Shown here one piece after another: positions 7,756-57,636 of a DNA stretch of 64,000 bases (position 1 is the first letter of the stretch; every line of letters starts with the position of its first letter). Source of the stretch: Blasia pusilla (lineage: Eukaryota); assembly GCA_050084515.1 (NCBI GenBank), contig CM114271.1, positions 12,338,001 through 12,402,000 of the forward strand, written 5' to 3'. Both the position numbers and the translations under genes were made by a program. Under the pieces are notes generated by a model. It ran no database searches, was not told the origin of the DNA, and saw only the letters and a list, made by a program, of their open reading frames with translations.

Positions 7756-7969
7756 TCATGCTTCTAGGAATCTTTGTAGATATATGGGCTCACCTTAGTC
7801 GCAAAAAAGCTTAGCACCGCATGTAGCAATATCAATATAGAAGAGTTATTGGCATTAGGCTTGAGCGGAACCTCACTGTCACAGAAATCTCCCTTGACGC
7901 TAATGGTTCCAACAACGGAGCTGCTCTGCCACATAACAGCTCGGAGTTGCTCGGATGCATCCAGCTGCG

Positions 7970-9639: not shown

Positions 9640-11864
9640 GAACCATGTTCCCTATTCAGCAGCATATAGGAGTGCATATGAGAGCAAGATCCGTTCATTC
9701 AAGTCATTTGTTATGCATATTTTTGTACAAGAGAGTGGCGAACGGAAGCACTCCCCAATTTTTTTTATAGGAATTAAGTACGTATGGGGGCGAGTTCTCC
9801 ATGTTGGTGCTCTTTGGAGCACCTTGTAGCTTGCTGGATTGTATTTTTACAGGTTTGCGATTTTCTATGGGAGAAATCAGAGCAGAAGCGTTGCCAAATT
9901 TTACGTAGGAGTAGAGGCCACGGGTTGCAAGAAAGTCTCTGCAAGTTTTAGATTGAAGGACTGATGAAGCAGCTGATTTGATGACATTGTAGCTCAAGAA
10001 GTCATGCATGTTGGTGAAGAAATGATGCACACGTTGGACATCTGAGTACAAAGTTGTGGCTGATCTCACAAGTTACCATAGCCAACTCGTAAAGGAAGGA
10101 GTCATTTTCGAAAATTCATGATAAAATCTTTAGTTGTCAAGAGATAGGAAAGTAAAATAATTTTATTTTAGTAGGGCCAAACAAGTGAAGTTATCACTTG
10201 GAGAAACATGTTAGTGAAAAAGTTATTTTTGGAGGAGTTGAGCCACCATTGGTGGAAGTGAGGAGGGGATTTCTGAGTGTAGATCCGGATTTTGAGGGGG
10301 TATTGTAGTTTAAAATTGTTTTTTGGTGCAGGCGTCTCTTCGAATTTAGGTCTTCGGGCCCGCACGTCCGCTTGCTGTCAGTTGCAGGTCTACAACCAGC
10401 TGCCGCTACCTGTTGCCTACTATCGTTGCGCGTGCAGGCCGCCGCGCATTCCTCCCACGCAGCCATTCCTTCCCTGCCTTCCGGCGGGGTCACTTCCATA
10501 GCCGGACTATGGGCCGACTCGACTACTGCCGGTCCGTCGTTTGGAGAAGCCGCAAACTGCCACTATTGCCGTGCAGCTGGCGCGAAGGTCCTATTGGAGC
10601 CGCGTCCGCTGTCCTCCGTCTGCACCCGCTCTATCTACACCCCGTCGGTCGGCCCTCTTCCGCTGCTATGGCGTTGACGTCGGTCGGCCCTCCCTGACGC
10701 TGACACCGCTACCGCTGTGTGCGGCCACCGTGGGTCTCTCCAGCCGCCAGTCGTCGAGTCCCGGCAGTAACCTCCGGGCCACGGCGACACTTGCTGTCAC
10801 GCTGGTGTGACACTCGCCTACGTGCCGTCACTCACGACCACGAGCTTGCCATCCGCCGTCCATGACGTTGCCGTCCAGACGGCCCGCTGTTGAGAACAGA
10901 TCAACTATGACCGTCGATAAGAAGAGAAGAAGATGCACTTCGATAAAAACGAGTGATGGAAAACCGATCGGAAGTACAAAAGAGGGGAACTCAAAGTGTC
11001 AAAACCTGAAGGCCACAACAAGACCAGAAAAGGAAGAAGGGGGCATTCCCCCCCTTAGCGACGAAACTCACCAACAGCAGAGACAATATCAGCAACAACA
11101 AGAGAGCTATGACTACTACTAAGTGGGCCTCTAGCGCCGGCGTCTCCCACAGCCTGAGCTGTGGCCTCGATAAGTTGTCGTCGTCCGCTGAACAGCCGCT
11201 ACCTGCCTTTAGCTACCGTTGGTTCCATGTTGAGCTTGTCGCACACCCATCGTTTGCAAGTACCGTCCATTAATGACATGTGATCTTTTTATTTGATTTG
11301 GTTTGAGTTCTCTTGGAGCTTTGCTATCTATGCCTTATGATTTGTATTCGTTTGATGATGATCGAATGTCATGTCGCTTGACAGCCATAGTCACCATGCG
11401 TCGTTGATTGTCACATTGTGTCGCTTGTGCCGCGTCATACCGTCTCAATCGTGGAGCCGCACTAGCCCAAAGAAGCAGAGCATCTCTTACCAATAGACGG
11501 GAGGATGTCACTTAGTGTCACATCTCATCATCGATAGTGCCGTGTCATTGATAGTTGCTCATTCCAGCCAGTGTCGCACCTTTCTGATTTGCTGGCACTG
11601 CACATCAAGGTGGTTGGAATATCGTTAACATTGGGAAGTGCGACTTGTTGACAGGAGGAGTTTGTCTTCATGGATAAGTTCGGTTCGAGGTTTGAAATTG
11701 CTGAGGAGCGACAACGATATTATTTCGAGGTTACCCATTCTGGTCTTTTGCCTTGCACGTGTGAGGGAATTCTAGATACTCGGTAGTTATCTAGCATTTT
11801 GGGTTTGTGCAGATGCTCAGAGGATCATTAATGTATGTGGTGAGGGACACAAACGTGTGTGACA
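9640..11864 (+). mobile_element. 5' leader region of the PHD/DNMT Gypsy family, truncated by another copy
   Basis: 9700-10080 matches 46585-46940, and 11640-11864 matches 47690-47915, both upstream of gag in the 45942-54539 element. Confidence 0.75.
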
Positions 11865-12624
11865 TGTCGTGCGCATACACATCGCTACACAACCCACATT
11901 TCTGGTCACATCTACACACCACACAACACCCATATTCCCAACACACATGTCAATCCATCCATAAACAAAAAAAAACTCACACATATATATTGAGACCCAC
12001 AATAATGTAAAAATCATAGGAAAAATGGCACACCCGACCTTAAACTCCACTCGTGAATCGACATCGGCATATGGAGCCTCGTCCACCCTCCGCTATGAGG
12101 GAATCCAAACGCTAACACCTTGGTCCTACCTCACACACGAGCAAGAGAGGTGCTCCATCGGCCCAACGTGAGAAAGATGGCTTGAGAAAGCCATCTTCCT
12201 CCTTTATATAGGTTTGGGAAGAGCCAAAAAGGCTCTTCCCCTGAAAATAGCAATCCTCTTGGTAACCTGCGTGCACAGAATACTAAGGGCGGATGACTAT
12301 TGAACCAATCCCCCGTCCGTCAGAGGCCAAAATAGGAAAGTCGTCAGAAATGACGTTCCTGATACAACGGACCTATCCTAAACCTTATCCGACACTTCGG
12401 GATGAAGTTATACTCAATACAATCTAATAACTCCCTATATCGTCGCTGCAATAGATCTCTACCTATTCACTACTAAGATGTGACAACTGTCGTGCGCATA
12501 CACATCGCGACACAACCCACATCGGTGGTCACATCTACACACCATCCAACACTGATCTTCCCAACACACGGGTCGATCCATCCATAAACAAAACAAACTC
12601 ACGCATATACATCGAGACCCCACA
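11865..12624 (-). repeat. B-A-B terminal structure: B 12488-12624 and 11865-12001 around a ~490-bp A segment
   Basis: Two ~137-bp direct repeats reading TGTGGG..GCACGACA on minus, preceded by purine-rich AGGGGGGCGG; the spacer has a CCTATATAAAGG TATA-like motif at ~12201-12212. Confidence 0.85.
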
Positions 12625-12702
12625 ACCGCCCCCCTAATTGCCAGTTGGATCCCCCCAACTCCACATAGCACATATCACATCTCCCTGACATGACCTACTA
12701 CC

Positions 12703-12842
12703 CTATACACATCTCGGACATATCCATGGTATGTGGGAACTACATCAAGAGGGAAGGTTAGACATGACATATGCCACCCTCGAGAACAACCATCACACAC
12801 CGACATGGTAGCTGCACCCCTTGCAGTTCTGCACAACATACA
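12703..12842 (-). pseudogene. PHD finger (C4HC3) at the integrase C-terminus
   Basis: CMLC..TMSVCDGCSRGWHMSCLTFPLDVVP, then after a frameshift WICPRCV* (12726-12703); all eight zinc ligands are recognisable. Confidence 0.9.
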
Positions 12843-14914
12843 CCTCAAGCTTGCAGGTACCACTACCAAGCTTGGATCCACGTTTGAAAGATGAAATGAC
12901 GCACAATTACACACATGATCCTTCCAAACCGTACCATCCCGTCCCTCCTACATGAGGACTCTGGTCGGTAACACCTTACGCACATGTAAGATCATGCGCC
13001 CTGTAGTGACATCTAGTGTTGTGTGTGACGCATGCTGTAGCTATATATAATCTCTAGGATGGAATCTCTTAATCCCTGGACGAAAATCTCCTCCATGAAT
13101 CATTGCGTATCTCTATGTATCAATGTGCTGCATAATAGCTAAGTTCTCAAATGCAATGGGCATAACTCTACAAAAAATCTCCACCCTTTGAGAACATGCT
13201 TGTACCCACACATCTGAGTCATCAAGATCAAACAATTGTCCCAAGTCACGTCAAATAGCTGTAGGTAAATCTGGCTCTCTCCCATGGAGCAAAAAGTACA
13301 ATGAAAATGACGCCAAGGATGCCTGACGGATGAAGTGATAACCCATAGCCAACCATGGCAACTCATTCCCTCCTTGACTCTCTCCGCCAATCCGCCTGCC
13401 TGAGGAAGATTTTTGGACGTGGTGTGGTGATCTCTACATGCCTGATTACACAAGGCCTGAATCTCTCCCTTGAACTCGGTACCCCAGTCAGTCAACACCT
13501 CCGCCGGTGCACCAAAATGACTAACCATACGATCTAGCTAGAAACGTATAAGTTGTTCCCTCACTTGCCTTGTCTAGTAGTGCCACCAACTCTATCCACT
13601 TGGAGAAATGCTCCACCATAACTAACATATACATATGATGATACCCCATCAATGGCAAAGGTCCTACGAAGTCTAGACTTCACCAATAACCTAAACCCAT
13701 AATCAACAAAAGATGCAATTGTAAAGTGGGAGCATTGAAGGATGCTCGCACTCGGTCACATACCATACATCTGGCTACAAACTACTAAACCTCAGTGTGC
13801 ATGTCGTGCCACCTATTAATATTGAACCTGAAGTAAATATGCTTAATTTTGGTTCAGTATTAATACGCTTGACTCCAAAATGCCCCAACTCCTTGTGGGC
13901 ATGTCGCACTACACGTGCTCGCTGGGAAGGATGAGGTACCATTCGTACCCTACCATTTCCCCATACCTGTAGAATATGTGTCCCCTCCTACTTGAACCTC
14001 ATGGTTCTTTGTAGGATCCAATCCCGCTCTCTAGCACTCACTGTGCTTGCTATGACGTTAGTCCGTAGGAACTCCACAACCTCCACCTGGTCATGGATAT
14101 CACCACTACTCCTTGCCTCCTCACTGATCTCCACATCTGAAGACTCATCATCTAATCCTACCACTGGAGTCACCACCTGCTGCTGACCTATCATAGTCAA
14201 CCACAAAGAAAGGTAGATGTGTGCCAAGTGGGCACCATCTCCTCATGAGTCTCTTTGTGCCATCGAGCTCTTGTGTTGTCTCTCTTACTCGGACATGGGT
14301 TGCGACTCAACCCATCTACATCTTGGTTCAGCTCACCTGGCCTATGAACCACCTCAAACTCGTACTCCTACAAAAATAAAGCTCACCTGGAAAGCTTTCT
14401 CGTAAGCTTGTTGAACTCCATCAACCACCTCTTTGGTTGATGAATAGTGCTAACTGTGAAAGGGTTGCTAAATAGAGAGCACCTGAAATATGCAACGGCC
14501 CTCACTACAACCAAACACTCTCCCTTGTAGGAGTTGTACTTTGTCTCTGCAATGTTGTTTGATCGGCTTGCATAAGCCACAACAAACTCCCTCTCCTCAT
14601 CATCTCTGTGAGTAAGCACTACTCATAGACCTAACATGCTCCAATCTGTATGTAATTAGAATGGACGAGCCCTAACTAGTTTGGAAAATGGATGAGCATG
14701 TCAGCCTATCCTTCAGCTTTTGAAATGCTCTCTCTTGATAATCTCCTTAATGCAAAACCTGATCAAGTTTCATCAGCAAGGTCAAAGACATCATGATCAA
14801 ACTAAAACCCTTCACATATCGTCAATAGAAGTTCGCCAATCTAGAAATTCTTGGACTCGACTCACATTTGTAGGGCGTGGAATCTCCACAATATCCTCCA
14901 CTTTCGTCTACTGA

Positions 14915-15182
14915 CACTAGAAGAAATCCCTGGTTTTATGACTAGGTTACATGACTCATATGAGTCATATTTTACATACCACGACTAACAATGACTAACG
15001 ACTACTTTAGACACAAAAGCCAAGTCAGCACCATAGCACTATCCATTGCAGGCTCGGGCTAGACTCTAACAATTATCTCTTGTCTAGTCATATACTTCAT
15101 GGGTAATTTGCCTCTAATAGAGTTCTGTATTTGGAAGGGAAAAGGCTCAATGACTCAATGGAAAAAAAAAAAAAAAAAAAAG
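14915..15182 (+). mobile_element. Probable CACTA terminal fragment inserted in the Gypsy copy
   Basis: Begins CACTAGAAGAAA exactly where pol similarity stops; many (A/C)TGACT-like short repeats; ends in a ~21-nt A run. No partner TIR found. Confidence 0.45.
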
Positions 15183-17251
15183 GAGTCTGGCTCACCTTGA
15201 TGGCCATCTCCAATACCGTGGTTGACGTTGACCCCCTACAAGTTGGCATAGGATTTGTCTCTCCAACTCCTTGCAACGTCCACGCACCTGCCCCACCTGT
15301 GGGCACCGCTGGTCAGGGCGCCATCGATGGTGTGTGTAGTGCCTCTCATAATGTAAAGGACTGTGGAACCTTGACTTTTTGCCCATCGGTCCTCTCTTGT
15401 GGGTCTATCTCCACCTCATCTCTCAATGACTCGGTCACCCTCGCAATACCCCGGGTCACCATTACAACAGCCTCTACCTAAGCCACACTGCATATGAAAC
15501 CAAGGCCAGAGAAATCCCCGGCTCTATCGTAATATGATGTGGAGGTGCCACCTGATGTAGATTCTCTTGGGTCCATCTCCATCCCTGGCTGCGTCATTGA
15601 CATGCTTGCAATCATATGCTCTAATTGGTGGATGCACGAGAGAAGCGCCATCTCTGTTGTCCACACTCCATCTCCTCCGCCAACTGGTGGACTTTGACCA
15701 CCGCGACCAAAAACTCCACGACTTGCCCCAAGAGAATCATCCCTAGGCTCTTGGCCTACCTTTGGTCGTGCATGCCTATTGGTGAAGATTGAAACAACTA
15801 TCTCTTGTGTGACCATATCGATGGCAATAATCACACTATAATTGTAGTGGGACCATCCAAGATGGCTCTTAAGCAATCGAAGCCATCCTTGGCCCTCTAC
15901 CATGTTGAGGAAAGTCCCTCTGCCTATGGGGCCCACCACACATCCAATAGGCCATCGTGGATCCTTGTTGGGCAACATAGGTCGCTACGGGTTGTTTCCT
16001 CATCGATTCCCGATACCCGACCTGCTCTCTAGGCACATCGGCATGCTCCCATGGTACTAGTGCACGTTGGGGCACGTGTGGGGTTATTGTCACTCACAGA
16101 CCCGTCGACTATGAGGAAAAACCTATGGTCACCACCTCCTCCTCACTCATGTTAAGCTTAATCTGCTCAAGCAACTCAAAGATCACCTTCAATGTGGGCT
16201 TCGCCAAGTGAAGCAACATCGCATCTCGCACTCTTCTCCGTAGTTCTAGGTCCACAACTACTTATCAATACTAGACCGACTGTGCCTTAGTCACTCGATA
16301 GGTTGCAAAGATCAGTCTCCATAGGCGCATGAATGCCTCCCTCAAACTCTCACCCGATCGTCACTAAAAATCTTGCAGACTCGTCAGCTTGTCGGTTTGC
16401 ATGCCATGGTAGCTTCTCCCCAACTGTCAGAAGAACTCCATTGTAGGACTGAAATTGGGTGGCCCTCTACCACCAGAGGTCTTTGCCACCTCACCACGTA
16501 CCCTCACTATCATCCTCTCCATCTAGTCCCTGCCTTGATAGTGTGGGTTTCTCCATCCTCACTATCCCATCATATGCCTCACGGGCACTAGTGGATACAT
16601 ACCCTCGAGCCCAATACATCCTCCAGGCATCAATTTCAGCTGAGTGTGGCCATTAGAACTCCATGTAATCATCCATCAGAGGACCCTCCAAGTGCTGGAA
16701 CAAACCCTTCCATGCCATAAAAGGGTTCAACCTTGTAGGGGCCCGTATCTCCTAAAAGCCGCACCATGTGTTGAACTCCTGGATGAATTCTTCTAAGTCG
16801 ATGGTGCCCACCAAACTTTGGAAATGACGCATGACTCGATGGCCCATATCGTCCATCTCTTGCCAAGTGACATTGTCCCTTACTACAATCTCGTCACCAG
16901 ACCCCCTATCTAGTGATGACGATCCAACTACTCGAAACCCCTCGGTATCTCACTCCATTCCGTGACACACCATCACCCTTGCTCAAACTACCCCGTTCTT
17001 CCCAACTCTGGTAGAACGCCTTGATGATAACCCCATCTCACCCACTCAAGCACTCACACTCATCGACAGTCTCCCGCACTCCTCACTAGGTCATATATGC
17101 TTATGATAATCTCATGAAGATACACCCGGCCTCACGCACACTCATCACTCTACTCAAGGACGGGTTAACATCCGTGCCCATACTAATGAGACCTATTAGG
17201 GGGCATCCTTTCTAGTTGCATACAAATTGGAGTATGTTGGGGCTTGGAGCA

Positions 17252-18944: not shown

Positions 18945-19093
<149 letters not shown>

Positions 19094-19673: not shown

Positions 19674-21073
19674 TATGCAACTATGCATGGAGGAGGCTAT
19701 CGACTAGGGATATGGAGATTCCATATGGTGATTATGTCTATTTACAGTAGACGGTGCCAATAAGAATGTATGTGATGATAGTATGCACTATTTTGCGAGT
19801 GGGAGAGATTGTACCTTCAAGAGTCCTTCTTTTAGAGGGTTGTGATGGTACCGTTTGGAAAGATCATGTGTGTAATTATGCGCCATGTCATCTTCTGAAT
19901 ATGGATGCATGGGAGTATTGATCCAAGATTGCCACTTATTCCTACAAGCTTGAGATGTATATTACGTGGGCTACTAGAGGAGAAGCCATGATGCTAGTCT
20001 AAGATGAGTGTTTTTGAGGATGGCATATGTCATGTTTGACGTCACTTCTTGACTTGGTTCCTCTGAGATGTATGTAGATATGATAAGTAGATTACAAGAT
20101 GACTCTTAATGTTATGGATTGTATGAAGGTGACAAATATCATGACACCTGAGATTCAGCATAACATTAACATACATGACATCCGATCTCCTAATCTTAGT
20201 ACCAAAAATATGCATAGTATTTAAACTTATTTTGTAGGCTATCTGGAGTAAGAAGGAACTAATCACCAATTAGGAGGGTACTTGGAATTTTATAGTTATT
20301 TAAGTGTAGATATGTTAGGATTCATAGTTAGATGGATCTTAAACTTGTGAGCATGACAGCCGATGTATGTTGGCAACGATGTCTATTTGCACGACAAATG
20401 TCATGGTAGATGAGATATAGGGCGAGATAGTATCAAGGCCTTAGACTAGTCTTATCCTTCCCTATTTTGATAAGTCATATGTGACCTTCTTTTAGGAGAT
20501 AACCTCCGAGCGTAGGTCACCCTTACCTTTATGAGGAGTGACAACCTTGGAGAGGTGGACCATCTCATCGTTTCTATGGAGCCACTTGAGCTTATAGGGT
20601 TCGAGTATTAGTTGGAAGTGGAATAGTAGTTGGTCTTATGAGAGGACCACATGTGTAGTTGTACAAAGGAGGTTACCTATGTGTAAAAGTCATCCATGGA
20701 GGTGCCAAATGGGGTTATACCTCGGACGAAACTCATTCAGAGCTCATATTCCTTGGATCAAACTCATGTTGGGATAGTGATACAATATAGCTTGCATATA
20801 TTGAGCCTAGATTCTCTCTTGAAGAGTGGGCTATCGTCAATCATACATATTGAGAGTTTATTGCAGACTATCTCTTATTGTTATTGTGGTGTGTATGATT
20901 GAGTGGATGTTTGGATGAAGCATAGTTGATTGCAAATTTCATCAACATAGCACTTTTATATTGGGGTTGTCCAATCATTTATGTGTAAATATGTTAGGAT
21001 TCATGATACACGGGTCTTAAATTTTGTGGAAGACACTTGATGTATGTTGGTAGCAATATCTATTTGCTTGACA
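19674..21073 (+). mobile_element. 3' fragment of PHD-Gypsy: integrase tail, PHD, B-A-B (B 20283-20396 and 20962-21073)
   Basis: LLLEGCDGTVWKDHVCNYAPCHLLN, DECF*GWHMSCLT; purine tract TTAGGAGGG; paired repeats containing TGTTAGGATTCAT..GATGTATGTTGG..TATTTGC..GACA. Confidence 0.8.
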
Positions 21074-21828: not shown

Positions 21829-22139
21829 CACGAATGCCGTATTAGGTGCCTAAACTAACCAAAAAGATTGTTTGAAGTCTCGGAAGAGTTGCTCGTATTA
21901 GAAAGGTAGGAATTAGGGAAGGTTGAGCTTGATGAGATGCCGAGTTGAGAACTAGGTGGGTTGGAGGGCCGATTGACCCAAACCCGACTCACGTGAGTGT
22001 GTTTGGGTGTAGATCGATAGTGAGAGCATGTCCTACTAAATGTACGCTTCCACAACACTAAAGATTGACATTCAAGAGGAGTAGACCCATGACACGTATA
22101 ATTTCCATGGATGGAAATGGAATAAAAATTCAACAAGGA

Positions 22140-24079
22140 GACATCCTTAGAGTTCTTCTTATCTTACTTGTTTTTTTATGGCCAAGAGTTAGATTTACTT
22201 ACGATCATTCATGATAGTATTGGTAAGGTTTCGAACCTCGATCATCTTGATGTATGGGTAAGAGCATGTTCTCAACGGGCTGAGTTGTTCCAAAGAGTTA
22301 TGCCCATGGCATTCAAGAACTTGGCTTTCATCAAGGAGACTATGTTTACTTGTAGTAGACAATACCTACCATTTGGATGTTATAGCATGATGCTTCATCG
22401 TGAGAGTGAGTGAGATATTGCCATCTGGTATTCTCTTATTGGAGGGAGATGATGAGATGGTTTGGAAGGACCATGTGGATAATTGTGCGCCAATGTCACC
22501 TTCCTAATATTGATGGTACCATAGATCTGACCTTACTAGTAGTTCATGTTCAACTTGGCTTGCATAGTATGTTGTGTGGATTTTCTTGTGGTGCTGCCAC
22601 CATGCTAGTTTGTGATGAATTGGATGTGCCGTAGATGTACATCAAGTAGGTACTAGGTAGTCATAGATCTAGACTCGCATTAGAGACATGGAGGAGAAGA
22701 AGGTGAATAACAATAAGGCTACATGAACATCCAACCTTTTTGCTCTTAGCATCCTAGAGATGTGTGCTCAGGTAAGTAGGGACGGATGGTTATCTTGAGT
22801 TAGAGAGACCTTATTCGTAGCTAGGGGGTGATTGGAGATATTTTGGTACATGATTGTCTCAATGTTTATATGCCATGAATGGATATGGTATCTCATATTT
22901 ATGAACTTGAAGCATGTGATATTGATGTATGTTGTGTAGTGATATGTATATGCACGATAATTTTCACGCCTTTTAGGATGGATTGAAGAGTATCCAAATT
23001 GCACCTTCGAGGAGATCGGAGGAAAACCTTAATTAATGTCATAGATTTCTTCCTCTACTTCACCAAGCTTCATCCCAAAGCACTCATAACCTTCAACATT
23101 TCATGTGTATCATCGCTAGTAGCTATATTGACTGCTTGTTTGGTGTCTTATGGTTGTGTTTTCATTGCATTTTGTGAATAGTCTTATGGCGTCTTGCCCA
23201 TCTTGACTTCTCACATGTTCCTTGCTTGTTGCCCTTGACTTGGCACTCGCCTCCAAGGCCCAAACCTTGCTTGCCTTAGGTTTGTCCCTGCGAGTAGCTA
23301 TGCCCCTTTCTTACCTTAGGCTAGTCACATGACACGTGAGTCTGGCCTAGCATTAGTTACTGCAGCTAGTTCATCCTTCCTAGTCTCAATTGCAACTTTG
23401 ATAGGTTACACCAAAGTCTTTTCTCCTTGGACCTTCGATCATGAATCACATCCCGAGTCCCCGTTAGTATGGACGTCATACACTTAGCTTTTCACAACGT
23501 TCAAGAGATTAAGGATGGCATGTTGAGGCCTTGGGTAACCCGAGAGAGCAAGTTTCTTTTTTTTTTGGCTCATTGGGAGCCATATTGAGAAACTTATTAT
23601 TTCATGTAAGCTCTTAATAAAAGCATAGTAGAATTTCCACTTCGGGAAGTTTGTGGAGCTATGGTCCTCCTTGTCTTGTGACCCCCTATAGCAGATCAAG
23701 AGCTAAGGAGCTACCCTAGAAGCATAAATTACCTTGGAGAGAGCTTGGGAAATGGGAAAGGGTATACCCAATGAGAGCGACCTTTAAGGCTCATTCTATC
23801 TTTGTTAGAGCTCTTGGCATGAGTTGGTGGAGCTATGGTCCTCCTCATCTTATGAGAAACCCAAGCCTCTTATTAGGAGAGTGGGTATGGTTTGACATGA
23901 GAGAGATGCAGATATTTTGAGAATTTGGAGCACTTTAGATTGACACCAGAGATATTTTGGTACAAAACTATCTTGGTGTTCAAATACCATGAGGGAGTAT
24001 GCATATGGTATCTTATATTTATGTGCTTATAGTTCGTGATAACAATGTATGTTGTATAGCGATGTGTATGCACATGACA
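22140..24079 (+). mobile_element. 3' fragment of PHD-Gypsy: integrase tail, partial PHD, B-A-B (B 22833-22959 and 23947-24079; A interrupted at ~22990-23505)
   Basis: WVRACSQRAELFQRVMPMAFKNL, CHLPNIDGTID, MLCGFSCGAATMLVCDE; GCTAGGGGG tract; A segment matches 46020-46400. Confidence 0.85.
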
Positions 24080-43000: not shown

Positions 43001-44112
43001 AGCTGATCCGAAGGGTCTAAAGGGCATGCATGATTCTCGAGGCTTAATGAGTACATTCTCCTCAACAGGGTTAACGTAGACGCATCTGACTCTCCACGTC
43101 AAGATTCCTACAAGTCTGAACGGCGAAGTCTTAGGAGGTGAATTGAGTAGTTCGAGGGAGGAACCCAACCACCCAAGTTGTAAGGCCGACCGACTTCTCT
43201 GGAGATTAAAAGGGGAAGGGTTCAACGGGGGGAGTCAAACGGACTTGGTGGGTCTTCCCCACCAAGTCCGTGCCATGCGATCTTTTGTAGTGCCAGTTTC
43301 TTTCTATCTCGGGGGAATCATTTCTCGTTTGAAAGGAGTTACTCTCGCTGCCACTACGTGATAGACTTCCACTCCACCAATTCTCGTGCCCATCTCCATT
43401 CCGTAATAAAATCTTTATATCTTCCCGATCCTCGAAATGAAATAATGGCTTAATAACCCCCTTAGGAAAATGTTGTGCCTTAAGAGGGCCATGTGAAAGA
43501 AATAACACATTACAGGCCCCTTCGGCATGGCCATGAAGAACTCAGCCACCCCATTACCTCGTGAAGGGGCCTCTCAGGGCCTCTCAATCACCAAAGGGCT
43601 CGGAGGAACTTTGTAGGTTGAAGCTGGTCGTTTCACCTTCACAATTTTCTTTTTAGTGCAAAACGCTATAGCCTTGCTGAACCTCTGTCTTATATGCAGA
43701 AACTGAAACTAGGGTCCCAATTACTTAGTAACTAAAAATTGAATGAGATGCTTTGTCTTTCTAGTTAGGTTAAATGGAGGATTGTTTGTGCAAGTTATGC
43801 AATTTTTGAAGTAGGAGAAGCCTCTGCATAAATTGAAGGAGATGATTACAAGGAATGGATATCAGATGAACCTTTTGATGGACCGATGGCATGATTCTTC
43901 AAATGGGTCACTCCCAAGCTATTATCTGACTAAGTCATAGAGTGGGAACGATAATTCCTACACACAGTAAGAGACCTAGATTACAATCCTACAATTGTTC
44001 AAAGTATAATGTGGAATAGATGAGGGAGAATTGAATGTAATTGCGAGTCTGTCAACCTAATATAATTGGCCCATAGAGGAAAATGCAACCTCATATAATC
44101 ATATTTATCCCA

Positions 44113-45941
44113 TGTTGGGCGGATACACATCGCTACACAACATACATCGTTGTAACCGAACACACACACAAACACGCACGATCCCATGCTAACTCATGGC
44201 ATCCAAACAACGAGACAAGAAGTACTAAAATATCTCTAATAAATCAAGATCCAATCTCTGTCAATACCATAGGTCTCAAATGTGTGCACTCTCTCTCTCA
44301 ATGTCAAACCAAACCCACTCTCCTAATGAGAGGCTAGGGTTACACACACAAGGCAAGCAAGACCATAGTTCCGTCGCCTCATGCCAAGAGGTTCAACAAA
44401 GAGAGAATGAGCTCTCGAACTCTCTCTCATTGAGGTATACCCCTCCCCTCTCCCAAGCTCTCTCCATGGTAACCTATGCTCCCAAGTCATCTCCTTGGCT
44501 CTTGACCTGATGTAGGAGGTCAAGGGCCACTTACCAAAAATAAAAAGGCGACCATATACTCAAAATAATACTTACCTAAAATAGTAAGTTCATGAATATG
44601 GCTCTAAATGAGCTGAAACGAAGGGGAAACCTACTCTCTCAGGTTTCCCGCGGCCTCAACAAGTCATCCTCGACCTCCTGAGCCTTTCCTTCTCTACTCG
44701 CGTAGGCACTCTACTCGATCTCACCGATTTAACCTAAAAGGTGTGAAAGATGTCGTGCGCATACACACTGCTACACAATATACATCGTTATCACCACAAA
44801 CAAACAATCACGATCCCATGCTAACTCATGGCATCCAAACAACGAGACAACAAGTACCAAAGTATCTCCAATCGCTCCCCTAGCTGGTGGTTAGGTTCCT
44901 CTAACTCCAGATAGCCATCTATCCCTACCTACCATGACATACATCTCTCAGACGCTAAGAGCAAGAAGGCCCGGTGCTCATGTGGCCCCATCGTTAGTCA
45001 CCTTCTTGTCATCCATGTCATAGACACAAGTCAAAATGTAGAACTACCTACTCTATGACACATCCATCGTCCCTAAGGAACCCTAGTGAGACGTGGCGTC
45101 AAGCAAGCCATATGCCATCCTCTCGAACATACTAGCATAGTGGCTACACCACGGGCAGAACCACACAACATATATCACAAGCCTCCAAGAACTCCTGCTA
45201 AGCTCGGATCAACTGTATCGTCAATGTTCAGAAGGTGACACGGCGCAAAGTTATGCATATGGTCCTTCCAAATCATACCATTGCGTCCCTCCAATAAGAG
45301 AACACTTAATGGCAAAACCTCACGCACTCTCAAGATGGTGCGACCTGCAGTCACATCCAACGTTGTGGATGCCGTCTACTGCAAGTAGACATAGTCTCCT
45401 TGATGAAACCTTCGGAAAGTAGGTTGATAACCACCCCCGCGAATAGTCGCATACCTCAATGTATCCTGATGCTACGCAATCGCCATGTTCTCAAACGCCA
45501 TGGGCATCACTCTCCGAAACAACTTTGTACTCTAAGAACATGCTCGCATCCATACACCAGGGTCATCAAGGTGTCAACAACATCTTGACGAATAGCCGTA
45601 GGTAAATCTGGCTCACGGCCATAAAGCAACAAGTACGGTGAGAAAGACGCTAAGGATGCGTGTATGCTGAATCTGTATCCCATCGCCAACCACGGCAACT
45701 GAAGGTCCCAATCTCCTAGGTGACCTCTCTGCAAGCCATACTTACGTTGTCCTCTCTTCACCGTCTGCACAATCCACTCCGCTAGTCCATTCGTCTCAAG
45801 ATGATCTCGCGAAGTACTGCAATGGTCGATCAGTGCCTAATCACACAAGGCCTTAAACTCCCCGTGGAACTTTATACCTTGGTTTGTCAATATCTTAGGT
45901 GGTGCACTGTAATGACTTAGCACGCGATCTAGGAAGGCATA
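44113..45941 (-). mobile_element. 3' part of PHD-Gypsy: integrase core and tail, PHD (45052-45175), B-A-B (B 44751-44870 and 44113-44238)
   Basis: YAFLDRVLSHYSAPPKILTNQGIKF, TNGLAE..VQTVK, SPYLLLYGREPDLP, LLLEGRNGMIWKDH, MLCG..MLVCSRGWHMACLTP..WMCH; GCTAGGGGAG tract before B1. Confidence 0.9.
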
Positions 45942-46455
45942 TATCATGTCTTTTAAGATAGATCGGTGAGATCTAGTAGAGCGCCTTCGTGAGTAGTGGA
46001 CGACACGCTCAATAGGTCGAGGATGATGTGCTGAGGCCCCGGGAAACCTGAGAGAGCAGGTTTCCCCTTCGTTTCGGCTCATTTGGAGCCATATTGAGGA
46101 ACTTACTATTTTAGGTAAGTACCATTTTAAGTATATGATCAATTTTATATTTTTGGTAAGTGGCCTTTGACCTCCTACATCAAGTCAAGAGCCAAGGAGG
46201 TGACTTGGGAGAATAGGTTACCATGGAGAGAGCTTGGGAGAGGGGAGGGGTATACCTCAAGGAGAGCGAGCTTGAGAGCTCACTCTCTCTTTGTTGAACC
46301 TCTTGGCATGAGGCGGCGGAGCTATGGTCCCTTGCCTTGTGAGTGTAACCCGAGCCTCTCATTAGGAGAGTGGGTTTGGTTTGACATGAGAGAGAGTGCA
46401 CACCTTTGAGAGCTATGGTGTGAGATGGTGTAGAGAGAGATTGGATCTTACTTTA
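45942..46455 (+). repeat. 5' terminal A repeat
   Basis: High similarity to the reverse complement of 44239-44750 (A between two B repeats) and to 23505-23945; here it is not flanked by B on either side. Confidence 0.88.
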
Positions 46456-48227: not shown

Positions 48228-49629
48228 ATGTCATCTTTAGACGAGGGGGAGCGTGTAGAGGAGTTTGTGAGCACATCGCCACAGATTGTGAGTGGTCCTA
48301 CCAGTTGGGCGTATGAGATGGACGATCAGGCTAGAGGACCGCGTAGGTTTTCAGGTGCATTAGGGACGATTGAGTTGCACGATTTCATAGCAGAGTTTAG
48401 GAGTTGGTGCGACTCCAAGCGGGCCAGGAACTCTAGAGGGTTCAACCCGTTTACAACATGGAACGGTATGTTCTAGCATTTAGAGGGGGCGCCCATGGAC
48501 GATTACCACGAGTTCTCTCAGAGATATGCACGTGAGATCGAGGCGTGGAGGCTCTACTATGACCTACATTATGTGTCATGGACGGAGCCATTCCCAGATG
48601 AGGAGGAGGAGTCATGAGAGGCTACTTCCTCTTCCACTAGTGATGTTTTAGGAGGGGTAACTCGCATGGGAGTAGTTGCACCTTCTACTCGGGCTCGTCC
48701 CAGGTTCAACCGTGTGGTTGAGTTCTTTGCTGAGTTGAGGGCGAGCTACCAAGGGGTACAGACGGAGAAGTTGCGGAGCATCCACGACTTCCAGAGGCGC
48801 TCGGGTGAGAGTTTGCGTGAGGCTTACACTCGCTTGCGCGTGTTGATCAACGTCACTCAGGGGGTGACAGAGGCTCACGCTATCCAGTCATGGTACGCGA
48901 TGCTAGACCGGACCCTGCAGACACGGGTGCGGGAGGAGGTGCTTCTTATGAACACCTCCCCTACATTGAAAGATGTTTTCACGACCGCCAAGAACATTGA
49001 GCGCAATATGGCGGAGGAGAGCATAGCCACCATGGGTTCTCGGCGAGAGCAGTCACGATTGACTACACTACCTGTGCAACAACGTGGACTCTGAGATAGG
49101 TCGATTGTGGCACCACGCGCTTAGGGAGGATACCGGGAGGCCGTGCCACAGAGACCTGCCTTCATATGCGGCTCAGCAGCCGCCGCCTTCTATTACTTGT
49201 TGGTCATGTAGTGGAGCCCATCATCAGTGCGATTGCACCCGTCAGGGTTATGGACGTGTGCCTCAGCATGGAGGAGGAGATGGTGTTGCACCAGGTGGTC
49301 CTGTTGGGGGACGAGGACCTGGAGTTTCCCAACAGGGTGGTGGAGCTGCCCATGGAGGAGGTAGAGTCCTACCACCTAGACGCGTCGAGAGAGATGCCGG
49401 GCGTGAGGCTAGGATGGCTCCTCAGATACATCAGCTACAGGAGCAGATTGCCGCTATGGCATTGAGATTACCCGATGCCAGATCCGTGGCATCGACATCA
49501 TATGGAGCAGCTAGAGATATAAGGGATCCTGGTTGGATGTGCGGGGTTGCCCAAATGGAGGCAGCCGCAGTTGTGACGCATGGAGCAGCCGCAGAGCTGG
49601 ATCCACAGCAAGGGGAAGCCAGGAAATAG
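48228..49629 (+). pseudogene. gag with CCHC zinc knuckle
   Basis: RRFSGALGTIELHDFIAEFRSWC, FQRRSGESLREAYTRLR (retrotransposon gag-like), CWSCSGAHHQCDC. Confidence 0.8.
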
Positions 49630-50089
49630 ACTAGGCTTCCTTAGTCTTTCACGTTGTCCAAGACGATGAGGACCCCATCGATGGGTCTTGATCAGAGTTC
49701 CTAGAGAGTTGGTGATGTTGTTGGTGTGCAGGCACGAAGGGCAATGGGAGAAGCAAGTGCGACGACTCCTATTGTTGATGCTCAGAAGGGGCATGTATCG
49801 AGCACGTTGTTGGGGGCAACCACCATTGTGTACCGCGTTCCTTTATTTTCTGCTTCCGATGTTATGAAGTTGGGGGCTACGCCCGCCGAGGCTTTTCGGC
49901 TGGCCGCTACGCTATATGAGCGTGGAGTTGGAGTTCTTGCATCACGTTTAGAGGTGATTGTAGAGGAGGTGATGGACCTATCCTTGGAGTGGATGCTCGA
50001 GCCGTCCACGTCAGATTCATGGCAAGCTGTGGCTGCTAGGATGGCGGAGATGCCCGCTAGACCCGCGATAGAGCGTGCCATGGCTTCTC

Positions 50090-50490
50090 CTGGTGTTGTG
50101 TTGCTGGATAATCGAGAAGAGGTCTTCCAGTTGGTGAGTCCCGGAGGTAGAGCTTTTAGTCCGAAACGCGTCTTGTTGGATTCAGGAGCACAACCCCTGA
50201 TGTTGGGGAAAGCGTCATTCAGAGGATTGGACTTGACGAGAGCCAATGTGGAGCGTTGTCCATTCCGCATATAGACATCCTTGGGTGGAGCGAGTACCAC
50301 ATAATATATCACCCGACAGGAGGTCGTGGTGAGGATTCGCCCGGGACATCCTATAGATGAGTCTGTGGTGCGAGCCAAGGCGATAGTGACTGATGTAGAG
50401 TCCTATGACGTCTTGGTTGGTGGAGCAGTGTTATGACTGATGGGATTTTCCCTCGATTATTGGGAGCAATGAGCATCCTACAGACCAAGA
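50090..50490 (+). pseudogene. Retroviral-type aspartic protease
   Basis: RVLLDSGAQ (DSG at 50179-50187) and the downstream YDVLVGG motif. Confidence 0.85.
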
Positions 50491-50906
50491 TGAGAGTCAG
50501 GTGATGGGCGCCTTAGCTCATTAACCATTCGATTCACATGTGCAGTGATCGAGCAACGGCCAGGAGAGATGGCGACCTTAGCAACATTTAGTAGTGCCAT
50601 CACTTGGCCTAGTGATTTGATTGAGGGACATATCCATGTAGAGGATACTCCTGTTCCTGAAATTTCTATGGAGAGGCGTGTTATGGTAGCCGTATCATTC
50701 CGTGGATGAGAGGTGCCGTTGTGGGGCTCGATTGAGGAGCTTCGACGATTGGCAGATGAGCACGTGCAAACCGCACGGAGCGAGGCGTTTGCACCAGAGC
50801 ATGACGGGTCTGAGGAACCCGAGGTAGTAGGGAGTGCTATGATGACACCCTTTGATACCACACTCATTGTGTGGTGTACCCCCTTTGATACCACACCCAT
50901 GAGGGT

Positions 50907-52845
50907 ATTCGAGTTTTAGATCTCTTTGGAGGGATTAGCACCGGGTTAGCAGTTGTTTTGCAGGCAAGAGTGCGAGTATAAGAGTACCTGTATGTGGAGA
51001 GTGATGATGTTGCAAGGCGCATCTCACTACAACATGTGGTGCAGTTACCCCTACATTTTCCCGACTTATTGTCTGTGTCCACGGTACAGGGATACCAGAG
51101 TTCCTTACCGAGGGATATTTCATTGTTGGGGGCGCAGGACTTAGAGCCGGTAGGAACCATTGATTTGGTCATTTCTGGTTGGCCATGTCAGGGCCAATAC
51201 TGGGCTCACTACCTACTAGTTCACGGAGAAGATGGTGCAAGAGAAGGACTACCAAGAAGTCTTGATGAGCGATACTAAAGCCTTATGTCTGTCTGCACAC
51301 TTTTCTTCATCTGAACTTTCACCATATAAAACTTTGCTTTCGAAGTACCTAGATGTGTTTGCCTGCACCATGGAGGAGATGAAAGGAGTACCAAAACAAT
51401 ATGGGGAGCATAGAATTGATCTCAAGTCTGAGGCAATCCCTGTGCGAATGATGCGGTATAGATTGAATCCAAAGTATTCCTTAATGGTCAAAGATGAAAT
51501 TGATCAGAGGTTGGAATCAAGAGTCATTTATCCGATATTGAGTAGTGAGTGGGTATCCCCCAAAGTCATTGTTCTTGTGCTTCATCCTCTAGACTGGACG
51601 AAGAAATTCCACGTGTATATAGACATCTCTTCATTTGCTATTGGTGTAGTACTCAATAAATTAGATGAGAAAAAGAAGGATTATATACCCTATCTATTCT
51701 GCAGGTCGGCAACTCTCGGTGGCGGAGCAGAAGTACACTACTACGGAGAGGGAGGCCTTGGAAATGGTCTTTGCCTGCAAGAAGTTCCGGCATTACTTTC
51801 TGGGGTACCCATTTATTTTTCATGTCGACCATTTTGCGCTTTGTGCCTTGGTGGTCAAAGCGGATTTCTCACGCAGGATTGCCCAGTGGATAATGCGGAT
51901 TTCTTATCAGGGTTGAGGACGCCCAAGGTCAACCTCACGAAGACCCTGTAAGATGATTTTTCGGACGAGGAGATGTTCCTTATAAGCAAAGAGACCTTGA
52001 GAAGATCTTCATACGAGGACATTTTGCAGTTCCTCGTCACTTTTAGATTGCCAACCCTTATGACAGAAAAAGAGCGGGTAGTGTTTTTACATAAGGTACG
52101 GCCTTATGAGCTGTGCTAGGAGGTATTATTCAAGCTTGGCACAGATGAAGAATACCGGAGATGCTTGGAGAAGGAGGAAGTACCCCAAGTGTTGGACAAG
52201 GCAGCGGGTTGGATGATACTCGGTCCAGGTTGCTTTGGGAGATGTTGAGGGTCTTACAGCAGTTACAAGAGCACCAGTCTCGTTCTCCAACCTACATTCT
52301 GGAGAATATGCCCATCTTAGGAGACTCCAGGTCACGGGTGGTGATGAGTGCTCATCAGGTGTGTGCCTAGATCGGCCCAACACTGTTCTTGGATGCGGCG
52401 AGTGTAGGTTCTAGAGCCCATCGCCCGTGTCTATGGTGGACCAACTTGGTTTCCCATGCGGTGTTACGGAGGGCGTATGCGAGAGTGGAGCGCCCCTCCC
52501 ATTTGTTGGTGGATCCCATTATGGAGCCAAGTCGTTGATCACACGCAGTGAGGAACGATGATCAACCACCGTTGACTGTGGTCAATAGGGTAGGCAGGCT
52601 ATGGGCAGCCTTTCCCACGTTTATGAGTTTTCGTGCTTCCTACGCATACAAGGAGGCCAGTCCTAGCTTGGTTTGGGATGACCAGGTTCAGAGGTTGGTG
52701 GAGCCCAACGCCAACGAGAGAGAGCGGGCGATGGGATTTCCCCCAGAAGTGACGGCAGTCTCGTCAGTATCAGAGGCATCACGACGCCATGTCTTGGGTC
52801 AGGCGATGGACTTGAACTCCTTGACATGGATCTTCAGCTTGGGAG
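50907..52845 (+). pseudogene. DNMT3-like C5 cytosine methyltransferase domain, copy 1, split by an insertion at 51198-52184
   Basis: Motif I IRVLDLFGGISTG; motif IV IDLVISGWPCQG; GL..RSRLLWE; motif VI YILENM; motif VIII DAASVGSRAHRPCLWWTNL; motif IX ERERAMGFP..T; motif X RRHVLGQAM. Confidence 0.92.
51198..52184 (+). mobile_element. LTR-less, internally deleted pol fragment of a different Gypsy lineage
   Basis: EHRIDLK..YRLNP..SEWVSP (RT N-terminus) joined to FHVYIDISSFAIG, AEQKYTTTEREAL (RNase H) and LFKLGTDEEYRRCLEKEEV (pre-integrase); absent from the paralogous MTase at ~58300. Confidence 0.85.
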
Positions 52846-53299
52846 TGGCTGAGCAGTGTCGGATGAGATCGCGACAGATCACAACGGTTGCGTTGGTGAG
52901 CCCCATGCCTACCAAGATGGTGGAGGCAGTGGCTGGGGGCGATACCCGAGGAGATCAACATACCAAGGTAGATCGGGAGAGACACCCTTGGACTTCTTGG
53001 GATGTTTTGCAGGTACGCCAGGAGATGATAGCCACAACATCGAGCGTGGTTCTGGGCACTGCATGTGGAGGAGATCAGAGTTTGCACTTGGCTGCAGGAG
53101 AGTGGTCGAGTGTTGTTGTTTGAGATGGGGTTGCACCATAGCAACCACTCATATCCACGCCGGAGAGTCCTACCGTAGTCACGATGGAAAGTTGGGAGCT
53201 AGATATGGGCCCTTTGTTGATAGGAGGAGAGTTGCGTCGAATACATCAGTTCCTCAAGAGTTATAGGAGCCGCTTTGCATTTAGCATGGAGGATTTGGG

Positions 53300-54539
53300 T
53301 ACGCTGAAGGGACTAGGGATCCGCATTGAGTTGTCGAGTGATACGTCGATCTTCCGATGACCCTACAAGTACAGTGATATGGAGAGGGCTTTGATTCAGA
53401 GTAGGAGCCACGACTTGGTTGGAGCAGGATTAGTGGGGATGTCGCATTGGAGTATGCATCTGCCACTGTCATGCCCGCCAAGAAGGATGTGCATGGCAAC
53501 TAGACGGATAGGCGGATGTGTGGTGATTACCGACCTATCAATCGGCAGACGAAGTCCAATAGGCATGCCATGCCCACCCCTGAGGAGATCTTTGATGCTT
53601 TTGGTCATGCAAAGGTTTTCAGTTCATTGGATTTGCGAGCCGAATACCATCAGCTGCCTATCAGATTGGAGGACAGGCAGAAGATGACATTTTGGGGCAT
53701 CGATCCTCACGGGAGGGATTGTTTGTACAAGTGGCGGTTCTTACCATTTGGGTTAAAGAACGCCCCGGCTGAGTTTTAGAGGGTCATGGATAGGATCTTG
53801 GCTGGTCTGGATTTTGCTAGGTGTTATATTGATGACATCGTAGTCTTTAGCACCACGGTTGAGGAGCATGAGCGACATCTAGAGGAGGTATTTTGACAAT
53901 TGCAATTACATGGGCTGAAGCTACATCCAGGCAAGTGCAAGTTCTTCTACGACCAGATTGAGTACTTGGGTAATACAATATACCTAGGGGGCCTTGGTGT
54001 TCAGCAGACAAAGGTAGAGGCTATCTCACGCATTCCACGCCCTACAGATGTGAGTCGTGTTCGCGCATTCATGGGATTGGCGAACTTCTATCGGCGGTAT
54101 GTCAAGGGATTCAGTTCGATTGCAAAGCCGCTGACCTTGCTGAACAAGGTGGATCACGAGTGGCACTAGGGGGATGAGCAAGAGCAAGCATTTCAGTTGC
54201 TCAAGGATAGGGCCCATCTTGAGGAGACCAATTAGGGGACTTCCTTTCCAGTTACACACAGATTGGAGCATGTTGGGGCTTGGAGCGGTGCTTACCCAGT
54301 ATGATGATGAGGGTAGAGAGTTCGTGGTGGCTTACGCTAGCCACTCAAACAATGCTGCAGAGGCGAAGTATAGCTCGTATGAGCATGAGTGCTTGGCTGC
54401 GGTGTGGGCTGTCGCGTATTTCAGGTGTTACTTATTCGGCAATCCCTTTACCATCATCATTGATCATCAACCACTGAAGTGGTTGATGGAGTCCAACAAG
54501 CTTACAGGAAAGCTTGCGAGATTGGCTCTGTTGTTGCAG
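53300..54539 (+). pseudogene. Gypsy reverse transcriptase and RNase H
   Basis: RMCGDYRPIN, FSSLDLRAEYHQ, LPFGLKNAP, YIDD (53825-53836), KCKF, FMGLANFYRRYV, FQLHTDWS..GLGAVL, YSSYEHECLA, DHQPL. Confidence 0.95.
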
Positions 54540-57182: not shown

Positions 57183-57636
57183 ACCCTTCAGCGTACCCAA
57201 ATCATGCATTCTAAATACAAAACAACTCCTATAACTCCTAAGGAACTCGTGTACGCGGCGTCGCTCTCCTCCTATCAACGTAGGGCCCATATCTGGCTCC
57301 CAAGCCTCCATCGGGATTATGGTAGGACTCTCCGGCGTGGGTTTTTGTGGTTGCTATGGTGCAATCCCCTCTCGGACAACAAAACTTGACTGCTCCCCTG
57401 CAGTCAACTACAAAATTGGATCTCCATATGCAGTACCCGGAACCACGCTTGATGCTATGGCTACCATCTCCTAGCGTACCTGCAAAACATCCCAAGAAGC
57501 CCAAGGGTATCTCTCTCGATCACCTTTGGTGTGTCGATCTCCTCGGGTCTCGCCCCCAGTTACTGCCTCAACCGTCTTGGTAGGCATGGGGCTCACCAAA
57601 CGCAACTCTTGTGATCTGTCGCATCCTCAAATGACG

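Follow-up and report, generated by a model that had tools for sequence, protein, structure and literature searches.

The stretch of Blasia pusilla DNA analyzed here (contig CM114271.1, positions 12,338,001 to 12,402,000; 64 kb in length and hereafter called the window) contains four places in which a PHD finger follows a retrotransposon integrase, as well as copies that carry a DNA methyltransferase (DNMT) domain. By comparing domains, trees and repeats, we show that the PHD-bearing and the DNMT-bearing copies belong to a single Ty3/gypsy lineage. The reading that we favor, to which we give a probability of roughly 0.6, is that the four places are dead 3′ parts of an element organized as gag, protease (PR), DNMT, a leaky stop codon, reverse transcriptase (RT), RNase H (RH), integrase (IN) and PHD, in which the PHD finger would tether integration to the tail of histone H3 and the DNMT would be made as a separate protein. 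Coordinates of all parts are collected in Table 1.

A C4HC3 PHD finger lies directly 3′ of the integrase of element 1, at 12703-12842(-), and matches Pfam PF00628. The 90-aa open reading frame (ORF) that holds it, 12675-12947(-), scores 27.6 bits against the Pfam PHD profile (E 2.9e-6; gathering cutoff 24), with profile positions 1-33 of 47 covered in frame. From 12842, the minus-strand frame reads CMLCRTARGAATMSVCDGCSRGWHMSC...LDVVP, and the fuller read is CMLCRTARGAATMSVCDGCSRGWHMSCLTFPLDVVP. The end of the finger, ...WICPRCV followed by a stop, is read one frame over, so the final ligand pair is reached only via a frameshift; across that one frameshift, all eight zinc ligands (Cys4-His-Cys3) are present with canonical spacing. 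When a C4HC regular expression was applied to six frames of the whole window, this finger, copy 1, was the sole match. The first-pass annotation had placed a C4HC3 PHD after the integrase in four fragments, and tblastn with P0004, a 388-aa rve-plus-PHD protein named as from the liverwort Calypogeia fissa, returned exactly the same four places, with Pfam support on copy 1. The damage differs in each of the four fingers and includes stops, frameshifts and deletions. Copy 2 has lost Cys1 and Cys2 and contains two stops, copy 3 ends after ...VCD (the third Cys), and copy 4 has a stop ahead of Cys1, a 3-residue deletion removing Cys4 and another stop ahead of the last pair. Moreover, a B-type terminal repeat sits at 19535-19674(+), immediately 5′ of the truncated copy 2 integrase, which indicates that copy 2 is rearranged. 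A protein search with ORF 12675-12947(-) retrieved seven proteins, P0004 among them, six of which have a precomputed PHD; P0001-P0006 end 0-5 residues past the last PHD cysteine, and P0007 breaks off within the finger.

By tblastn, no copy in the 64-kb window carries both a DNMT and a PHD, and the relationship between the two kinds of copy was examined with trees, repeats and relatives. The trees were quick LG+G4 trees with support from the Shimodaira-Hasegawa-like approximate likelihood ratio test (SH-aLRT) only. In the RT-RH tree (59 rows), the RNase H of element 1, whose row fills just 28% of the columns, was sister to the RT-RH of the plus-strand DNMT copy (SH-aLRT 83), and the pair joined Marchantia P0025, a DNMT-RT-RH protein (SH-aLRT 99). 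The IN-PHD tree comprised 82 rows, for which 30 of 115 proteins of the order RT-RH-DNMT-IN-PHD were sampled randomly and 12 near-identical cluster members were dropped; both window copies fell within a 16-row clade (SH-aLRT 99) together with P0049 and P0195. The first-pass annotation had also pointed to near-identical RNase H peptides, a related gag and a shared A repeat, and all three are borne out. The peptides EREFVVAYASRSNN at 14554-14595(-) and GREFVVAYASHSNN at 54312-54353(+) are both present, and the gag regions 15208-17149 and 61236-63151 share 72% identity over 1980 bp. The A repeat exists as well (44240-44740 versus 46455-45950, 87% over 511 bp), but the match is inverted, which fits one A in the tail of the minus-strand copy 4 and a 5′ A in the plus-strand DNMT element. 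The 87% between the A repeats of the DNMT element and of copy 4 lies within the range obtained when the two DNMT copies are compared (81-88%). Furthermore, an internal deletion in element 1 left about 240 bp between 15151 and 14913, and exactly PR-DNMT-RT is gone.

A contiguous copy with both domains, which the first-pass annotation had proposed to look for, was found among relatives. P0195 (2811 aa, P0049 cluster) is a single ORF of the order PR-DNMT-RT-RH-IN-PHD with no stop, and the metagenome contig L017 carries an intact element in two ORFs, gag-PR-DNMT and RT-RH-IN-PHD, on either side of an in-frame TAG, with Pfam-confirmed domains. Both show the Ty3/gypsy pol order PR-RT-RNase H-IN (RVT_1, RT_RNaseH, Integrase_H2C2, rve), and the window pieces lie in the same order. 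Among 80 metagenome loci scanned, 28 had at least 4.8 kb upstream and at least 1.3 kb downstream of the integrase, and a same-strand DNMT was present upstream of the integrase in 24 of these 28. The PHD was detected in 21 of the 28 at first pass (tblastn, E<=1e-5), and relaxed alignment revealed a PHD-homologous remnant in the other 7, bringing the count to 28/28. Searching with the window DNMT ORF gave 30 longer proteins, 26 of them with precomputed PF00145; Marchantia polymorpha, Calypogeia fissa and Sphagnum fallax are among the species for which they are named, and P0036, one of the matches, also has RT, RNase H, rve and PHD. With P0004 as the query, 120 longer proteins among the matches listed comprised 119 with PF00628, 7 with PF00145 and 6 with both. 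Clusters of a 533-aa DNMT ORF and of a 1033-aa RT-RH-IN-PHD ORF have six contig sizes in common, and a second pair has two, which suggests that these ORFs are adjacent.

These results leave next to no room for the idea that the PHD-bearing and DNMT-bearing fragments derive from different elements that are neighboring or nested, their link being coincidental. The lack of a window copy with both domains would agree with such a coincidence, as would the distance between element 1 and copy 4, which share 67% nucleotide identity over the integrase and have unrelated terminal repeats. The present data already contradict it, given the single ORF and the intact element with both domains, the 24 of 28 loci with both, the agreement of the RT-RH and IN trees, the A repeat shared by the DNMT element and PHD copy 4, and a deletion in element 1 that took exactly PR-DNMT-RT. 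The first-pass annotation had named, as the outcome that would speak against a link, separate RT/RNase H clades with domains never found together; the RNase H sequences are sisters and joint copies exist. The structural half of its claim, that the PHD copies are linked to the DNMT copies, therefore stands on the trees, P0195, L017 and the flanked loci.

UAG-CAR-YYA is a leaky-stop consensus, and an in-frame TAG is found between DNMT and RT in both DNMT-bearing window copies and between the two ORFs of L017 (Table 1). We tentatively note that the contexts in the window and in L017 fit this consensus, which would put the DNMT on the Gag side of a readthrough site. If readthrough holds, the DNMT, 5′ of the leaky stop, and the PHD, past it, would reside on separate proteins.

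To which kind of PHD finger the family belongs was addressed with 262 PHD segments, 250 of which have the full C4HC3 ligand pattern, with C2C-11-C2C-4-H2C-14-C2C as the main spacing. The ratio of nonsynonymous to synonymous substitution rates (dN/dS) of the PHD is about 0.21 (59 pairs among 18 gap-free copies, pairs that are not independent). The best sequence matches in the PDB were CHD4 (1.2e-14), DPF2/3, KMT2C/D, KDM5A/B, ATXR5, PHF21A, BAZ2A/B, UHRF1 and AIRE. An AlphaFold2 model of the 181-aa tail of P0002 consists of a helix, an SH3-like barrel, a disordered linker and the PHD. Foldseek placed this PHD on ATXR5-H3, BAZ2A-'unmodified H3K4', UHRF1 and DPF2/3 (root mean square deviation 2.1-2.6 over 45-48 columns), with target-normalized template modeling (TM) scores of 0.63-0.74 for isolated single fingers and lower values for longer DPF chains, and the entry titles of the nearest solved PHDs name unmodified H3 ligands. 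PHD fingers that read H3K4me3 (BPTF/ING type) have an aromatic cage with a Trp two residues ahead of the zinc-binding His. The family reads ...CSRGWHM..., with Gly at His-2 and the aromatic residue at His-1, and thus lacks this cage. The family retains an Asp following Cys3 (CD.C) as well as the signature L.PPL..(V/I)P.G.W.CP.C. By sequence and modeled fold, the finger appears cage-less and nearest to readers of unmodified H3 (CHD4, DPF2/3, BAZ2A, ATXR5, UHRF1), and its predicted ligand is the histone H3 tail, most likely unmethylated at K4.

In 157 of 252 PHD-bearing proteins, the finger is preceded by a second conserved cysteine-rich motif, N-C-A-P-C-H-L-P (C-x2-C-H), which is located about 25 residues before the first PHD Cys, on the stretch linking the SH3-like barrel to the PHD, and often has an extra His 3-4 residues ahead. 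Its dN/dS of 0.13 is below that of the PHD, and it may be an additional zinc site; in element 1 (window ~12880-12917(-)) it is mutated to NCASFH. The SH3-like barrel and PHD of P0002 align weakly with the Tudor-PHD cassettes of PHF1, MTF2 and UHRF1 (TM 0.23-0.28), and the pairing of barrel and PHD may matter for nucleosome binding.

To place the window copies in their wider family, local profiles seeded from P0195 were run over 323 fetched proteins, a sample biased by the queries. Both DNMT and PHD were present in 121 of the 323, in two domain orders: RT-RH-DNMT-IN-PHD in 60, plus 55 N-terminally truncated forms, and DNMT-RT-RH-IN-PHD, the window's type, in 6. Another 48 proteins were RT-RH-IN-PHD, but most of them start at most 190 residues from RT and are therefore little informative on an upstream DNMT. 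A representative search returned 531 clusters at E<=1e-30, of which the best 150 match nearly all via the PHD region of the query. Some of the proteins matched with P0004 carry the names Haematococcus, Pleodorina, Tetrabaena and Volvox. We show, on sequence grounds, that the PHD clade is large, extending over chlorophytes, bryophytes and environmental contigs, and that its PHD is conserved and under purifying selection. All 25 of 25 PDB hits of the Marchantia P0011 DNMT were DNMT3A, 3B or 3C, and judged by these matches the family's DNMT is Dnmt3-like. In DNMT domains of the window order, motifs I, IV (PCQ) and VI (ENV) were kept together in 25 of 30. In proteins of the order RT-RH-DNMT-IN-PHD, the DNMT is often below the Pfam cutoff (four of five sampled scored 14.5-22.8 bits, over a constant profile region), and alignment (e.g., P0099, P0082 and P0104) revealed the conserved motifs FGGLCAG, GWECQ, ENT and AHRLRNFWTN. 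Motif IV of these domains retains the catalytic Cys, with Glu replacing the near-universal Pro, and motif VI is ENT. The possibility that they are catalytically dead was rejected, as the alignment shows conserved variant motifs.

We propose that the family polyprotein would be gag-PR-DNMT (Dnmt3-like)-[leaky stop]-RT-RNase H-integrase-PHD, followed by B-A-B terminal repeats. The PHD is the last integrase domain, at the position that the chromodomain takes in chromoviruses, where, according to passages of PMC6673714, chromodomains direct integration. By analogy, the PHD would tether the integrase-cDNA complex to nucleosomes through the N-terminal tail of histone H3. Lacking a methyl-lysine cage and being most similar to readers of unmodified H3, it would most likely read the K4-unmethylated tail, and new insertions would then be steered away from H3K4me3-marked (active) promoters. 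The DNMT, made from the gag-PR side of the stop as a separate protein, could methylate the element's own cDNA or the insertion site; retrotransposon DNMTs methylate CG de novo, according to passages of PMC5890265. We infer histone-guided integration and a reader-writer coupling in which the two proteins would cooperate as an element strategy, not as a single enzyme.

Several observations weigh against this proposal. The IN-PHD copies of the window are pseudogenes, dead relics, and nothing functions there now; the clustering of seven fragments in 64 kb of DNA rich in transposable elements (TEs) is equally explained by retention in gene-poor DNA. The leaky-stop context was matched in just 2 of the 28 loci plus both window copies, and P0195 is stop-free. 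Four of the 28 loci have no DNMT (L024 and L073, both also without RT and RH, and L069 and L055), and at least two long polyproteins, P0301 and P0298, are PR-RT-RH-IN-PHD without DNMT. The PHD is thus more widespread than the DNMT, and the integrase with its PHD either predates the acquisition of the DNMT or has the wider distribution. The P0002 model is of moderate confidence (mean predicted local distance difference test score, pLDDT, 70.5; PHD part 63-81). In BHC80 and AIRE, acidic residues before Cys1 and in the first loop contact K4 and R2; the window subclade has G-L-R ahead of Cys1 and the loop GSARGAAT after Cys2, without acidic contacts, whereas other subclades have D at position -3 and acidic DDAD-type loops.

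The last of these points also speaks for a PHD that is a conserved integrase accessory and not a reader of the H3K4 state, one whose ligand would be some other mark, a host chromatin protein or nucleic acid, or that would only stabilize the assembly of the integrase. The missing acidic contacts are typical of H3K4me0 readers. The upstream C-x2-C-H motif (157 of 252 proteins) might be part of a larger zinc module, and barrel and PHD resemble Tudor-PHD cassettes, at the low TM given above. We consider this explanation unlikely, though worth keeping in view, since almost every solved PHD that comes near in sequence and fold binds the H3 tail and since CD.C and L.PPL..(V/I)P.G.W.CP.C are preserved. 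A rather improbable alternative is that PHD and DNMT form one coupled reader-writer, in which the PHD would bring the DNMT to H3K4me0 nucleosomes in the manner of an ADD domain and the element would methylate itself at its landing site. Both domains do occur in one polyprotein (P0195, L017), the DNMT is Dnmt3-like with a PHD nearest to unmodified-H3 readers, and in the order RT-RH-DNMT-IN-PHD (60/323) the DNMT directly precedes IN-PHD, making a DNMT-IN-PHD product conceivable. Against this, the family to which the window copies belong has RT, RNase H and integrase between DNMT and PHD, with an in-frame stop in addition in L017 and both window copies, and protease processing would separate DNMT from PHD. 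Moreover, DNMT-less PHD relatives exist, and the two domains are thus not obligately coupled.

A broader scenario, unlikely to hold in all its parts, is that of one ancient Ty3/gypsy clade, from chlorophytes to bryophytes, that would carry a histone-tail-reading PHD on its integrase and, in most members, a Dnmt3-type DNMT, and that would choose and write its own chromatin. The DNMT would occupy two positions, either between RNase H and IN with the unusual E-C motif or between PR and RT ahead of the leaky stop.

The remaining parts of the elements were laid out by placing relatives' proteins with tblastn and by comparing the window with itself by blastn (Table 1). The plus-strand DNMT element has a Pfam RT_RNaseH match of 113 bits at 54144-54596 and DNMT motifs I and IV; its DNMT lies at 50892-51212 and 52194-53006, interrupted by an insert of about 1 kb. 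This insert, 51213-52193(+), contains an ORF (51220-51948) with weak RNase H-like matches (E 5.6e-5) and is probably, by these matches, a fragment of another retroelement. In the second DNMT-bearing copy, the DNMT ORF 57640-58461(-) scores 43.7 bits on PF00145 (Pfam DNA_methylase). Between the two inverted DNMT copies lies a tandem direct repeat of about 1.2 kb (54595-55788 and 55791-57031, 79% identity), which starts exactly where the plus-strand DNMT element ends after RNase H and is without coding similarity. We rejected the idea that copy 4 and the plus-strand DNMT element were once continuous and parted by a simple inversion, as the sequence after 54540 has the tandem repeat in place of integrase N-terminal coding. 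The minus-strand DNMT copy (copy B) and copy 4 might be halves of one minus-strand element split by the plus-strand element.

Table 1. Parts of the PHD- and DNMT-bearing elements in the window, and domains of the two relatives that carry both.
Feature	Positions	Strand	Evidence or remark
PHD finger remnant, copy 1	12703..12842	-	Pfam PF00628, 27.6 bits; translations
Integrase core, SH3-like C-terminal region and PHD, element 1	12735..13781	-	tblastn P0004 residues 4-374, 58% identity, E 5e-119
Integrase C-terminal fragment and PHD remnant, copy 2	19674..20065	+	tblastn
Integrase C-terminal fragment and PHD remnant, copy 3	22102..22619	+	tblastn
Integrase (from residue 81) and PHD remnant, copy 4	45040..45941	-	tblastn P0004, 67-69% identity; alignment
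RNase H-to-integrase linker and integrase H2C2 zinc-finger region, element 1	13865..14137	-	tblastn P0036, P0013; weak Integrase_H2C2 match 13775-13987
RT end and RNase H, element 1 (contains EREFVVAYASRSNN)	14239..14913	-	Pfam RT_RNaseH 56.7 bits; tblastn P0013; peptide position
gag, element 1	15151..16829	-	tblastn P0011 residues 12-538; 72% nucleotide identity to 61236-63151
B-A-B terminal repeat block 3′ of element 1 PHD (B 12479-12625, 11858-12002)	11858..12625	-	direct repeat, 86% over 148 bp
B-A-B tail, copy 3	22835..24069	+	blastn versus 44112-44872 and 46005-46400
B-A-B tail, copy 4 (B 44750-44872, A 44240-44740, B 44112-44240)	44112..44872	-	blastn
A repeat, read as 5′ A of the plus-strand DNMT element	45950..46455	+	blastn, 87% to copy 4 A; contiguity with gag at 48333 inferred
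DNMT-bearing element, gag-PR-DNMT-RT-RNase H, ends after RNase H	48333..54539	+	tblastn P0011, P0013, P0036
In-frame TAG between DNMT and RT, context TAG CAA CCA	53139..53141	+	frame from tblastn high-scoring segment pair coordinates
Second DNMT-bearing copy (part of gag, PR, DNMT, RT start; DNMT 57625-58866)	57171..60478	-	tblastn; 81-88% nucleotide identity to plus-strand element
TAG CAA CCA, second DNMT copy	57354-57356	-	starts at 57356; in frame with both flanking domains
gag-PR fragment, element 1 subfamily	60574..62832	-	tblastn P0011; blastn versus 15208-17149
P0195 domains (residues)	PR 1004-1095, DNMT 1380-1481, RT 1845-2008, RNase H 2072-2201, integrase 2384-2552, PHD 2765-2808		
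L017 ORF1	976-5082		PR and DNMT (51.1 bits)
L017 in-frame TAG, context TAG CAG TTA	L017:5083-5085		between ORF1 and ORF2
L017 ORF2	5086-8226		RT, RNase H, integrase, PHD (40.6 bits)

Elsewhere in the window, several ORFs at 975-4500(-) encode a CACTA/En-Spm-type transposase (Transposase_21 136 bits, DUF4218 126 bits), and 28572-29573(-) is a remnant of a hAT-like gene (DUF4371 below cutoff; C17orf113-type zinc finger 45.5 bits). Long (GA)n/(CT)n microsatellites at 18950-19110 and 19330-19520 give rise to spurious ERER/SLSL open frames on both strands. With this transposase, the hAT-like gene and the microsatellites, the region is TE-dense. A repeat family of about 0.7 kb has three copies (8897-9605, 21081-21826 and 24185-24919; 68-76% identity), and the longest ORF of the window, 38101-40032(+), 644 aa, is without a Pfam match and could be a host gene or chance.

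Retrotransposons with chromatin readers (chromodomain, MBD, PHD) or with DNMTs are each known, and both are windows on the arms race between transposon and host. In the family described here, the two are joined in one polyprotein, and the family is abundant (531 representative clusters) and taxonomically broad, with members named as from Marchantia and intact copies on public metagenome contigs. The window's own functional contribution is nil, because its copies are decayed relics. What becomes testable is whether a transposon-borne PHD directs integration and whether a transposon-borne Dnmt3 acts on the DNA of its own element. If the PHD steers insertion into H3K4-unmethylated chromatin and the DNMT marks the copy, a self-silencing or stealth strategy would result and, if true, there might be a route by which Dnmt3 genes pass between transposons and their hosts in plants. 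Each part has been described on its own, in Gypsy-DNMT3 elements and in algal Gypsy elements with a PHD, and the combination seems to be unpublished: in literature searches directed at it, we found no description of PHD and Dnmt3 in one Gypsy family, nor of a chlorophyte-to-bryophyte spread and two domain orders of such a family, some of which figures or supplements may show.

The closest published relatives are Gypsy elements with a Dnmt3 domain from Klebsormidium (KnitGypsy-Dnmt3; de Mendoza et al. 2018, PMC5890265), and the term 'streptophytes (Gypsy-DNMT3)' appears in bioRxiv 10.64898/2026.05.21.726589. As far as the published description goes (passages of PMC5890265), KnitGypsy likewise has a pol of Gypsy type and a polyprotein that includes a Dnmt3-like C5-methyltransferase. 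In the same passages, A-coding-B-A-B is the SymbioDIRS arrangement (Fig. 1) and the repeats of the K. nitens element are the same as in DIRS (Fig. 4); here, copies 1, 3 and 4 each have a B-A-B block past the PHD, and the plus-strand DNMT element is preceded by an A, although no single window copy has both ends and the 9.3-kb L017 contig yielded no terminal repeats. The two differ in range, the published acquisition being 'in the K. nitens lineage' (passages of PMC5890265), whereas the names attached to the proteins found here include Marchantia, Calypogeia, Sphagnum and volvocine algae, and two domain orders occur, which extends the reported range of Gypsy-DNMT3 elements beyond Klebsormidium. 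The text passages of PMC5890265 make no mention of PHD, finger, zinc, histone or Marchantia, and its Fig. 4c or supplements may show a PHD. With chromoviruses, the family shares a histone-reader module that follows an SH3-like domain and forms the very C-terminal end of the integrase, and integration targeting by chromodomains through histone marks is established (Gao et al. 2008, cited in passages of PMC6673714). In contrast to chromoviruses, the reader here is a PHD finger and not a chromodomain, and Pfam scans of window ORFs and relatives gave no match to the Chromo family.

PHD fingers in the pol of green-lineage long terminal repeat (LTR) elements are a further likeness, with the PHD elements of Chlamydomonas. 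REM1 is reportedly (Perez-Alegre, in 2005) a PHD-bearing Chlamydomonas retrotransposon. Passages of published work describe Gypsy-7a_cRei of Chlamydomonas with the order RT, RH, PHD, INT and no DNMT (PMC9940879 Fig. 6), PHD as 'a common accessory domain' in C. reinhardtii TEs (PMC8557442) and PHD fingers in other transposons as well (bioRxiv 10.1101/2021.11.30.470311). As far as that figure goes, Gypsy-7a_cRei has its PHD ahead of INT and lacks a DNMT, whereas here the PHD comes after the integrase and a DNMT is present. The algal 'Chlamyvir' clade was considered as a PHD carrier and discarded, as the papers describe chromodomains and no 'PHD'. The same reader-plus-writer concept is found in EpiLTRs of Cymbomonas and Euglena, LTR retrotransposons that join a chromatin reader with DNA methyltransferases, namely a chromodomain with a DAM adenine methyltransferase and a DNMT4-related DNMT (bioRxiv 10.64898/2026.05.21.726589). 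The pair assembled here is a different one, a PHD with a Dnmt3-like DNMT.

A comparison with host enzymes leads to animal DNMT3. Its ADD domain is a PHD-type reader of unmodified H3K4 that lies adjacent to the methyltransferase and regulates it allosterically. The likeness is that a PHD-type reader is associated with a Dnmt3 catalytic domain; the differences are that the reader of the retrotransposon family is a plain C4HC3 finger and not an ADD, and that reader and DNMT sit far apart, one at each end of pol, and probably belong to different mature proteins.

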